DNA of 64,000 bases from assembly GCA_965249285.1 (NCBI GenBank), contig OZ252226.1, positions 1,187,095 through 1,251,094 of the forward strand, read 5' to 3'. The notes beneath the pieces were generated by a model. That model worked only from the letters and a program-made list of their open reading frames with translations. It was not told the DNA's origin and made no database searches. Source of the DNA: Candidatus Foliamicus sp. GTDB lineage: Bacteria; Pseudomonadota; Gammaproteobacteria; Steroidobacterales; Foliamicaceae. Positions 62,217 through 64,000 of this stretch are shown in pieces. Each line of letters starts with the position of its first letter. The stretch's first letter is position 1. The position numbers were made by a program, and so were the translations under genes.

Positions 62217-62445
62217 GCCCGCATATTGCATCAGTTTCCGGAATTCCGGGCGAGAGATGTCGCGTTCCGGTGCGTGCTCACGAGCGGAAGCATAGCCCTG
62301 CCTATGGTGAAGCGAGTATGTGCGCACTGGGCGCGACAGATCCGCCCGGAAACCGGAAAGCGCAAGTCAAGAGCAAAGTGCAATTTCCGGCAACGCAATC
62401 AACTTCAATGCAAACAGCGACTTATCGAATCAAGGCGCGGACTGG
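62217..62445. mobile_element. Short non-coding element with an IS1380-like end (putative MITE), interrupted by intron copy 2
   Basis: TA + gcccgcatattgcatcagt; no transposase before the intron boundary. Confidence 0.55.
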
Positions 62446-64000
62446 GTAGAGTCGGGGGCTGGCGCGCCAGTGTTAGGGTCCGGTGGCTGTTCCATCGCTT
62501 TCGCTCTGGGCCTCAGTCCGGCTCCCATAACCGCGTTTCCAGGCCCCCGCTCATCAAACCGGACGTGCGGTTTTCCCGCATCCGGCTTTCCGACGAGATC
62601 ATGCCTTCGCCCACGGAAGGCCCTTGGTCGTTGGCCCAAGGCGGATAAGGCCGTAGTGCGCCCACAGCCGTTCGTTCGGAAAGCGCACATACTTCCCGCT
62701 CCTCACCTTGTGCTTCCGACACAGCCATTGTCGCAGCCGCTTCGTCGCGTGAGCATCGACCGCGCAATACGCCCGGCTGACCTGGCCAAGCCGAAAATAC
62801 TGGGCCCAACCGGATAGCATCCGGTTCAGCCTCTCTACGACTTGCTCCGGGTCCTTCAGACCATGGCGCGATTCGGTTTGCTCACTGATCTTGCGGCAGA
62901 TGCTTCGGATGCTGGCCTGGCTCGGCCGAGTGCCGATATAGGCCCCACCGCCGTTCGGACGGTAGTTCCATCCAAAACGGTAGCCGAGGAACTCCATGGG
63001 TTCCGCCGGACATCGTAAGCATCGGGTCTTTTGCGCGTTGATCGGAAGCTTCAGCCTTTCCATGAGACGGGCGACACGCGGCAGCATTTCCGCCGCCGGA
63101 GCCTTACCCAATACACAAAAGTCATCCGCATAGGACACGACCTCCGCGCACAAGCGCGGGGCAAAACCCCGCTGCTCCCAACCCAGTATGAAGCGCCGCA
63201 TGTAGAGGTTGCTCAGCAGCGGTGATACCGGAGAACCCTGGGGGGTCCCCTTCCGTTGCTTGCGCGACCGGTGGGTCAGGCGCTTGCCGCCTTTCCCATC
63301 GTCCTCTTCAACCGCCATCTCCAACCACGCCTTGATGAGTCCGAGCATCTTGCCGTCGCTCACGCGACGCGCGACACTCCTCATCAGTTCCGCATGGGGG
63401 ATCTCGCCGAAGTAGTTGGACAAATCGCCATCTACCACCTCATGGTAGCCCCTGTTCAGGAGCCGGTGAATGCGCTTGACCGCATCCAGGGCGCTTCGTT
63501 CCGGCCGATATCCGTATTGCTCCGGTCGCAGGTCCGCTTCGAATATCGGCGCCAGCACAAGCAGGGCCGAAGTCTGTGCCACCCGGTCCCGGATCGTCGG
63601 GATACCCAAAGGCCGAAACTTGCCAGGTTGCTTCTTCGGGATCAGTACCTGTCGTACCGCTGCCGGTGCGTAGGTTCCGTCCCTCAGATCCCGCGACAGT
63701 TCCCCAAGCCACCGCTCCACGCCCTGCGACTCAATGTCCAGGAAACGCTCCCCGTCGATGCCAGGCCGACCGCCATTACGGCGCGCCATAACCCAGGCCT
63801 CCAACAGAAAGTCCTTCCGCCAGACCTTGTCATACAAGGCGTGAAAGCGACGCTCGGGTTCTTCCTTCGCTTTCGCATGTAAAACGATCTGGAGGTTCCG
63901 AACCCGTTGTGACCCTGTTAGGCTCGCGCCAGTGGCCATGCCTTGTCTCCTTACCGTTTCCCTCTCGAAGTCAGGCCCCTTTCCTCAACCGGCATTACCC
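62446..64000 (-). mobile_element. Group II intron (copy 2), 5' part beyond window
   Basis: Collinear with copy 1 at offset 15677; 3' end CTCTAC at 62446. Confidence 0.92.
62599..63939 (-). CDS. ltrA: Group II intron reverse transcriptase/maturase
   Basis: Translation identical to 46922-48262. Confidence 0.95.
   Translation of the reverse strand: MATGASLTGSQRVRNLQIVLHAKAKEEPERRFHALYDKVWRKDFLLEAWVMARRNGGRPGIDGERFLDIESQGVERWLGELSRDLRDGTYAPAAVRQVLIPKKQPGKFRPLGIPTIRDRVAQTSALLVLAPIFEADLRPEQYGYRPERSALDAVKRIHRLLNRGYHEVVDGDLSNYFGEIPHAELMRSVARRVSDGKMLGLIKAWLEMAVEEDDGKGGKRLTHRSRKQRKGTPQGSPVSPLLSNLYMRRFILGWEQRGFAPRLCAEVVSYADDFCVLGKAPAAEMLPRVARLMERLKLPINAQKTRCLRCPAEPMEFLGYRFGWNYRPNGGGAYIGTRPSQASIRSICRKISEQTESRHGLKDPEQVVERLNRMLSGWAQYFRLGQVSRAYCAVDAHATKRLRQWLCRKHKVRSGKYVRFPNERLWAHYGLIRLGPTTKGLPWAKA

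Follow-up and report, generated by a model that had tools for sequence, protein, structure and literature searches.

A 64,000-nucleotide stretch of Candidatus Foliamicus sp. contig OZ252226.1 (positions 1,187,095 to 1,251,094; hereafter the window) contains two copies of a group II intron. One copy splits the right terminal inverted repeat (IR) of an insertion sequence (IS) of the IS1380 family, here called IS-A, and the other, which runs past the end of the window, appears to split the far IR of a ~243-bp element that lacks a transposase. We consider it likely that the second copy arrived recently, when the endonuclease-less intron retrohomed into the end-repeat of a miniature derivative of IS1380, in which case the last 1.8 kb of the window would consist of two nested mobile elements and not of host genes. 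Feature coordinates are collected in Table 1.

Copy 1 is complete and has the conserved intron ends, 5′ GTGCG following the GUGYG rule and 3′ CTAC following the AY rule. When the two copies were compared base by base at an offset of 15677 (46769-48323 against 62446-64000), 1555/1555 bases were equal with no mismatches, bearing out an earlier claim, made from the letters of the window, that the copies are identical. Identity breaks exactly at the intron 3′ end, where 46768/46767 are unlike 62445/62444. The Rfam domain V/VI model RF00029 matches both copies on the minus strand (46769-46913 and 62446-62590) with the same score of 45.5 bits (gathering 40), and the D1-D4-4 model RF02003 matches copy 1 at 48586-48730 with 71.2 bits (gathering 49). 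The intron-encoded protein (IEP) has Pfam matches to RVT_1 (1.1e-32) and GIIM (6.9e-18); no HNH endonuclease domain was matched in Pfam, and just 33 aa follow GIIM. If copy 2 is as long as copy 1, its 5′ end is computed to lie at 64433. The original prediction of an end near 64433 therefore agrees with the length of copy 1, and the window stops at 64000, before that junction. The two 100% identical copies with their precise boundaries are indirect evidence of splicing and retrohoming activity, and the intron is probably active as well as recent. The end of the contig lies within a repeat, which is relevant to assembly.

Read on the minus strand, copy 2 is followed by the 3′ exon CCAGTCCGCGCC..., which starts CCAGT. 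At the other side of the 229 bp that follow stands an inverted, unoccupied IR (GCCCGCATATTGCA at 62217-62230) continuing as TCAGT, with no transposase between the two, as had been claimed. Adding to these 229 bp the 14-nt outer half-IR expected past the intron gives an element of ~243 bp, in support of the proposal of a roughly 245-bp non-autonomous element whose far IR is split by the intron. The exact 14-mer GCCCGSATAWTGCA occurs three times on both strands of the 64-kb window (45170, 48757-70 and 62217), each time as an element end, and it is very unlikely that an exact inverted IR would lie 229 bp from the intron by chance. The left IR of the element is identical to the left end of a truncated second IS1380 copy, IS-B (42111), at 17/18 positions. 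When the left end-repeat, GCCCGCATATTGCATCAGT, is set against the right one as read from metagenome contigs, GCCGCAATANTGCACCAGT, 15/19 positions agree if one unread base, N, is T. The open reading frame spanning the element (62048-62449) has no Pfam match, and blastx of the 229 bp against the IS1380 transposase of the window gave a best E of 2.7. The body instead holds an imperfect palindrome capable of forming a long hairpin, whose DNA fold has an energy of -49.5 kcal/mol (z = -3.2; 0/200 shuffles as stable). TA stands at both sides of the element; the dinucleotide is palindromic and is possibly also an intron requirement (PMC4075523). Outside the left TA, ~28-29 nt (62189-62216, CCCGCCCAGGTAGGCGAGAACCCCTT) resemble the right subterminal region of IS-A at 46715-46745 (score 32, shuffle maximum 30); they may be what is left of an older IS1380 end that received the miniature element.

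The 5′ junction of copy 2 was sought in four public metagenome runs of one sample (X1-X4), which hold the locus (99% of sampled words). Logan contigs of these runs were mapped to the 5′ junction of copy 1, and contigs leaving the intron into a different exon were collected. Word depth was ~18, 18, 5 and 19 in unique flanks and ~38, 39, 15 and 28 in the intron interior, corresponding to two copies. A contig with a second 5′ junction was found in 4/4 runs, 306 nt long in X3 and X4. This contig aligns to 48732-48764 with a single mismatch, beyond which it continues as TGCGGCTAGCCTGTGGCATGAGGACAGGAT. The plus strand of the junction reads the last 25 intron nt, tgcaNtat, TGCGGC, TA and GCCTGTGG... 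(the sequence after TA also written GCCTGTGGCATGAGGACAGGAT); written as a 5′ exon it is ...CCACAGGC TA GCCGCAATANTGCA / GTGCG, with GGC before the TA. The mismatch N was placed at 48761, as a one-k-mer unitig of 31 nt ends with 48760 plus the variant base. Junction depth was 7.7 in X3 and 13.5 in X4, against 8.2 and 13.2 for the copy 1 flank and 14.9 and 28.3 for the intron interior. Because its depth matches that of the copy 1 flank and both junctions sum to the intron depth, the junction was taken to be the 5′ flank of copy 2, which implies from 64434 the sequence TGCANTATTGCGGC plus TA, that is, TGCA(A)TATTGCGGC, TA, GCCTGTGGCATGAGGACAGGAT. Of the predicted tgca(a/t)tat(g/c)cgggc followed by TA, the 14-nt end and the position of the TA stood, and three letters differ (TGCGGC for (G/C)CGGGC); an IS1380-like end lies beyond the intron 5′ end in all four runs. 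Runs X1 and X2 also hold contigs at 2-4x in which the 5′ end of the intron, the IS-A right IR and TA (48739-48772) lead into a different flank, GCTCCAGCACTCCG...; these contigs thus represent an intron-bearing IS-A end located elsewhere, in a different strain or organism of the community. One more contig in these two runs has the 5′ exon ...TTTAGCCCGCACTTCTCC/.

IS-A is the host of copy 1. Its IRs, GCCCGGATAATGCA at 45170 on the plus strand and at 48757-70 on the minus strand, agree at 14/14 positions with TA outside each, and its size minus the intron is 1613 bp. Copy 1 lies between nt 14 and 15 of the right IR, antisense to the transposase. TA also stands beside intron-free IS1380 ends, at 45168, 42109, 48771-72 and 62215 and at the far end of a complete IS at a metagenome locus described below (L075).

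How the intron could recognize these sites was addressed by mapping its exon-binding sites (EBS). The first 300 nt of 23 related introns, taken from the metagenome scan with the IEP described below, were aligned, and exons were shuffled among introns as a control. A 7-nt loop, UGCAAUA, was identified as EBS1 and gave 127/161 pairs with the exons, against 72.9 +/- 6.4 in shuffles (maximum 97). The probable EBS2, GGGC, showed weaker covariation (60/92 pairs; shuffles 47.5 +/- 3.8, maximum 61). By this pairing the intron reads IR positions 1-4 through EBS2 and 8-14 through EBS1. At the occupied sites EBS1 matches 6/7 and EBS2 4/4 for copy 1, and 7/7 and 3/4 for copy 2 with N taken as T. The three empty left IRs score 7/7 and 4/4 (the IR at 62217), 6/7 and 4/4 (IS-A) and 7/7 and 3/4 (IS-B). 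Both occupied targets are on the minus strand, and all three empty ones would put the intron on the plus strand. GC skew of the plus strand is negative in 8/8 8-kb bins, which places the introns on the G-rich, leading-type strand. By inference and by analogy, this orientation would fit the lagging-strand-template rule for endonuclease-less introns described for RmInt1 (PMC8914252). A clear and testable target rule for the intron lineage follows: TA, 4 nt of intron-binding site 2 (IBS2), three unconstrained nt and 7 nt of IBS1.

The mechanism that we propose begins with an active endonuclease-less intron that would recognize the outermost 14 nt of IS1380-type IRs by RNA-DNA pairing and reverse-splice between IR positions 14 and 15. 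One copy would have entered the right IR of the full-length IS-A, and an identical second copy the far IR of the ~243-bp element, which resembles MITEs (miniature inverted-repeat transposable elements). Insertion would proceed by retrohoming primed at the replication fork, which would account for the minus-strand position of both copies and for the three equal or better plus-strand targets that stay empty. Splitting of the IR would be expected to cripple recognition of that end by the transposase. The 243-bp element may once have been mobile, or could instead be a one-off deletion remnant.

Several observations weigh against this reading. What links the junction contigs to copy 2 is depth together with copy-number arithmetic, not contiguity. 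The right end that they supply is a 14-nt IS1380-type end followed by TA, but it matches the left end at 11/14 positions. IS1380 elements make a direct target duplication of 4-5 bp; every IS1380 end examined here lacks such a repeat and has TA alone, and the two flanks of IS-A (CTTA/.../TAAG), which are inverted and not direct, share only the TA. Outside the IR, the 229-bp body shares no DNA similarity with IS-A or IS-B, so that the label IS1380-derived is carried by the end-repeats. The complete 243-bp unit is single-copy in the metagenome: in runs X1-X4 no other contig covers 62381-62445, and no intron-free copy of 62217-62445 was found in the source metagenome. The name MITE used in the original prediction suits a small, transposase-less element with IS-like IRs, and has to be qualified because it implies a multi-copy family, and several dispersed copies were not found in these runs. 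Exact look-ups of the IEP and of the protein of the neighbouring ribbon-helix-helix gene gave no record, and plasmids held no match to 61000-64000 (megablast) or to 62190-62460 (blastn). Only the pieces 62215-62259, 62272-62325 and 62346-62380 recur in the metagenome. The first of these is a 45-nt left-end module (TAGCCCGCATATNNCANCAGTTTCCGGA...CGGGC.AGAGA) that appears in other contigs of the same metagenome with 2-4 mismatches and differing flanks. Scanning one genome per species for the left-end pattern GCSCGCATATYKCAYCAGTTTCC turned up two loci, neither of them the source and each with the 45-nt module alone: L001, in a metagenome-assembled genome of Thermoanaerobaculia, and L002, in a Ca. 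Foliamicus chromosome. The left IR might therefore belong to a smaller unit. In both genomes the module stands alone in intergenic DNA (L001 95-140, L002 1630-1670), and in L001 it is bounded by CTAGCCCG...CGGGCTAG.

These observations bear most directly on an alternative in which the intron inserted ectopically at a chance site that meets its needs (IBS1, most of IBS2, T-16/A-15 and G+4), the IR at 62217 stands by itself as a solo end or as part of a 45-nt module, and no 243-bp element exists. The resemblance of the right end to an IS1380 IR appears to be mostly what the intron itself requires, as nearly all of the shared bases are its own demands, and at the unconstrained positions -10..-8 the right IR matches the left at 1/3. 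Moreover, the target of RmInt1 needs T-15 and G+4 (PMC4075523), so that TA at -16/-15 and G+4 could here be IEP contacts and not marks of an IS end. The solitary modules and the single-copy state of the whole element point the same way. A chance site, however, does not readily account for an exact inverted IS1380 IR 229 bp away when both strands of 64 kb hold just three exact IRs, and C+2 and T+5 of the right end also agree with the left end. TA likewise flanks the intron-free IS ends listed above, and the GCAATAT variant of the right IR occurs in an intron-free IS1380-type IR at another locus (L057), one of four independent loci with the intron in a short IR pair. On balance, we regard ectopic insertion as unlikely.

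It is also rather unlikely that the 243-bp unit is a deletion remnant, in which a full IS1380 copy lost its interior once, before or after the intron entered, and then stayed immobile without ever multiplying. The unit is single-copy and lies in an IS graveyard with a truncated IS1380 20 kb away, as a remnant might. Against this, the 229 bp hold no trace of transposase coding and no subterminal DNA of IS-A or IS-B, and the body, a palindrome that forms a hairpin, is of a kind typical for miniature elements. A related element is also present in the same community, as one contig joins a similar left end (TAGCGCGCATATCTCACCAGTTT) straight to 62346-62380 without the palindrome. Duplication at the DNA level, in which the right end of IS-A, along with its intron, would have given rise to copy 2 by segmental duplication or by recombination, would account for the 100% identity of the copies, but is very improbable: identity stops at the last intron base on the 3′ side, it extends no more than 4 nt past the intron on the other (tgca, which itself belongs to the target), and no IS-A DNA was co-duplicated. 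Two other candidates were discarded. A sigma-54 promoter at TAGCCC-N5-TTGCA lacks the invariant GG (judged by eye), and a match to the IR consensus at 13993 is a chance match within a 541-aa open reading frame.

Retrohoming into IS1380-type end-repeats was then viewed against related introns elsewhere. A metagenome scan with the IEP returned 80 loci whose IEPs are 55-79% identical. In distant relatives from other metagenomes (IEP 55-57% identical) the intron lies behind TA plus GCCCGGAWATTTCA, both in full IS1380 copies and in transposase-less IR pairs of 44-260 bp. Among the 80 loci, 15 distinct 5′ exons follow (C/T)TA GCCCG(G/C/A)AWATTNC / GTGCG. In five loci the intron immediately borders an IS1380 transposase, which is on the same strand, with the intron at the left end, in L076, L056 and L013, and on the opposite strand, with the intron at the right end, in L075 and L063. 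The IS in L075 is complete (~1.75 kb, TA at both ends), and its intron lies 14 nt inside one IR. The intron lies inside a short, transposase-less IR pair in L064 (44 bp between TAs), L057 (47 bp), L077 (~91 bp) and L071 (~260 bp, with an internal palindrome); with four such loci, the layout described in the original prediction recurs independently. In L057 the intron-free partner IR carries the GCAATAT variant, as does the right IR here. Six soil loci (L064-L069) have the same intron within one shared 44-bp IR pair (TA GCCCGAAAATCTC / intron / ...GAGATTTCCGCGC TA), and their left flanks all differ. The idea that this tiny pair is a self-contained mobile unit is weakened by four of the loci having one right flank beyond the TA.

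Closer relatives (66-79% IEP identity) have other 5′ exons, often with TA ~14 nt before the intron, and 31/51 distinct exons have TA at -17..-15. At L047 3028-8007, L039 963-4747, L007 3511-7385 and L004 ~2000-5420, relatives with 67-77% IEP identity lie within ~50-230 nt of the end of a transposase gene of Tn3, IS4/IS1634-like or IS21-like type. Some of them have TA ~14 nt upstream of the insertion point, and the sites suggest a shift of target to the ends of further transposon families. Relatives carried on plasmids of Planctomyces, Buttiauxella and Xenorhabdus, whose IEPs are 47-54% identical and annotated just as ltrA, also have TA plus 14 nt. At L030 (5375/5376) and L045 (2708/2709) the 3′ end of one intron (...GACTCTAC) abuts the 5′ end of the next (GTGCGCCGTG), head-to-tail with no exon between.

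From these comparisons we tentatively propose, as a possibility that we hold with less than even confidence, that a whole clade of endonuclease-less introns homes on the outermost 13-14 nt of IS1380 IRs, always just inside the TA. Its members would be of the Rfam D1-D4-4 type, with IEPs as little as 55% identical, and occur in metagenomes (soil, mat and others) as well as on plasmids carried by cultured bacteria. Changes in EBS1 and EBS2 would have moved some members to the flanks of Tn3, IS4/IS1634-like and IS21-like elements. IS copies and their miniatures would form a self-dispersing reservoir of landing sites, and each insertion would disarm an IS end by splitting, at the level of the DNA, the repeat that the transposase binds. 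The comparative data mark the IS1380-type end-repeat, transposase-less miniatures included, as a landing site of long standing. If a split repeat no longer supports transposition, the introns would be natural brakes on the spread of IS1380; if the composite still moves, the intron would gain a second, DNA-based route of mobility. Either outcome is relevant to research on conflict between mobile elements. No description of clade-wide homing to IS1380 ends, or of a hyperparasite throttling its host transposon in this way, was found in the searchable literature, and use of the IS1380 end-repeat across the clade is a more interesting lead than this locus.

Introns nested in IS elements are already well documented, and bacterial introns prefer other mobile elements (PMC4181065); what sets the present case apart is the terminal-repeat site and the miniature host. 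Searches of the open literature turned up nothing specific on group II introns inside IS1380 elements or their ends, in terminal repeats or in MITE end-repeats. Among the closest known systems is RmInt1, which homes into ISRm2011-2 (PMC1802570). Like the present intron, RmInt1 has an IEP composed of reverse transcriptase and maturase without an endonuclease, a natural homing site inside an IS, so that spread of the IS makes new targets, and a target read mainly by EBS/IBS pairing over ~11-13 nt. RmInt1 prefers the lagging-strand template and so has a strand bias (PMC1802570, PMC8914252), which the orientation of the present copies would parallel, and its critical T-15 and G+4 (PMC4075523) parallel the T-16/A-15 and G+4 seen here. 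The present case differs in that the host IS belongs to IS1380 (PF13701), the target is the terminal IR at 14 nt from its tip, and one occupied site would be a transposase-less miniature element. An insertion in a terminal repeat would be beyond repair by RNA splicing, because the repeat works as DNA.

E.c.I4, which homes into IS3-family transposase genes (PMC3522654), and other enterobacterial introns occupy fixed positions in such genes (IS629, IS911, ISEc16, ISEc31). E.c.I4 likewise uses an IS family as homing sites, has near-identical copies within a genome and can saturate its sites (PMC3522654). Its targets, however, are within the coding region of the transposase, and splicing can repair an mRNA interrupted there, whereas here a non-coding end-repeat is the target and one orientation is occupied. 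IS-derived MITEs (Correia-type, and IS630-derived with TA flanks) resemble the present element in its size of ~243 bp, its IRs similar to those of a resident IS, its lack of a transposase, its hairpin body and the TA at both sides. Unlike them, it has the IR alone, and not subterminal DNA, in common with the resident IS1380, and a 2-kb retroelement interrupts one IR. IStrons also physically combine a ribozyme with a DNA transposon (PMC4227781). They are single chimeric units moved by a transposase, with splicing by a group I ribozyme (PMC4227781), whereas here a group II retroelement would have invaded an IS or MITE end.

Table 1. Coordinates of the intron copies, the miniature element and the surrounding insertion sequences in the window.
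Feature	Position	Strand	Details
Group II intron copy 1	46769..48756	minus	complete, 1988 nt, GTGCG...CTAC
EBS2 (probable), GGGC	48557..48560	minus	intron nt 197-200; pairs with exon -14..-11
EBS1, UGCAAUA	48530..48536	minus	intron nt 221-227; 7-nt loop; pairs with exon -7..-1
Group II intron copy 2	62446..>64000	minus	3′ 1555 nt of 1988 in window; 5′ 433 nt past window end
IEP, 446 aa	62599..63939	minus	reverse transcriptase + maturase (Pfam)
TA beside left end of miniature element	62215..62216		
Left IR of miniature element, GCCCGCATATTGCA + TCAGT	62217..62235	plus	unoccupied; TCAGT at 62231-35
Miniature element, portion in window	62217..62445		229 bp; = copy 2 3′ exon on minus strand
Left-end module, 45 nt	62215..62259	plus	recurs elsewhere
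Internal imperfect palindrome	62235..62359		long hairpin; arms 62235-62264, 62332-62359
IS-A (IS1380 family), left IR through interior	45170..46768	plus	left IR 45170-45183
IS-A transposase, 455 aa	45205-46572	plus	PF13701 E = 5.6e-165 over 424 aa; full-length
IS-A right IR, outer 14 nt (GCCCGGATAATGCA)	48757..48770	minus	= 5′ exon end of intron copy 1; TA next
IS-B, truncated second IS1380 copy	42111..~42640	plus	left IR GCGCGCATATTGCATGAG, TA before; 85% DNA identity to IS-A
IS-B transposase, N-terminal fragment	42194-42628	plus	PF13701 8.5e-38
IS3-type integrase	49813-50277		Pfam
IS4/IS1634-like transposase	51516-53252		Pfam; resembles transposases beside related introns in L039, L007
IS110	53520-54845		Pfam
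DDE_Tnp_1_6 transposase	55094-56077		Pfam
IS5-like transposase	56885-57856		Pfam
IS21 istA/istB	58172-60029		Pfam

By Pfam, the final third of the window (42109-60029) is a pile of IS elements. An inverted repeat of ~1 kb, 86-90% identical (33421-34062 against 55175-56471), brackets the IS-rich segment. A fragment of a DDE_Tnp_1_6 transposase adjoins a tRNA gene at 34067-34154, with a fuller copy 21 kb off. Next to the IS21 copy, 60140-60493 encodes a small, secreted-looking ankyrin-repeat protein with three 99-nt tandem units that are 74-79% identical in DNA. An intergenic repeat of ~75 nt, 80% identical between 60763-60836 and 62077-62149 (...GGCAGGGGTCCCCACC.TTGCC..GGCAGC.CCAG), flanks the region of a ribbon-helix-helix gene. 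A family of GC-rich palindromic repeats (GGAACGAGGGCGTCCCGCCCTCG...) lies at 5472-5523, 11453-11504, 18363-18409, 36017-36063, 39425-39551 and 40674-40774; these repeats are intergenic, partly arranged in 26-nt tandem arrays, and look like repetitive extragenic palindromic (REP) elements.

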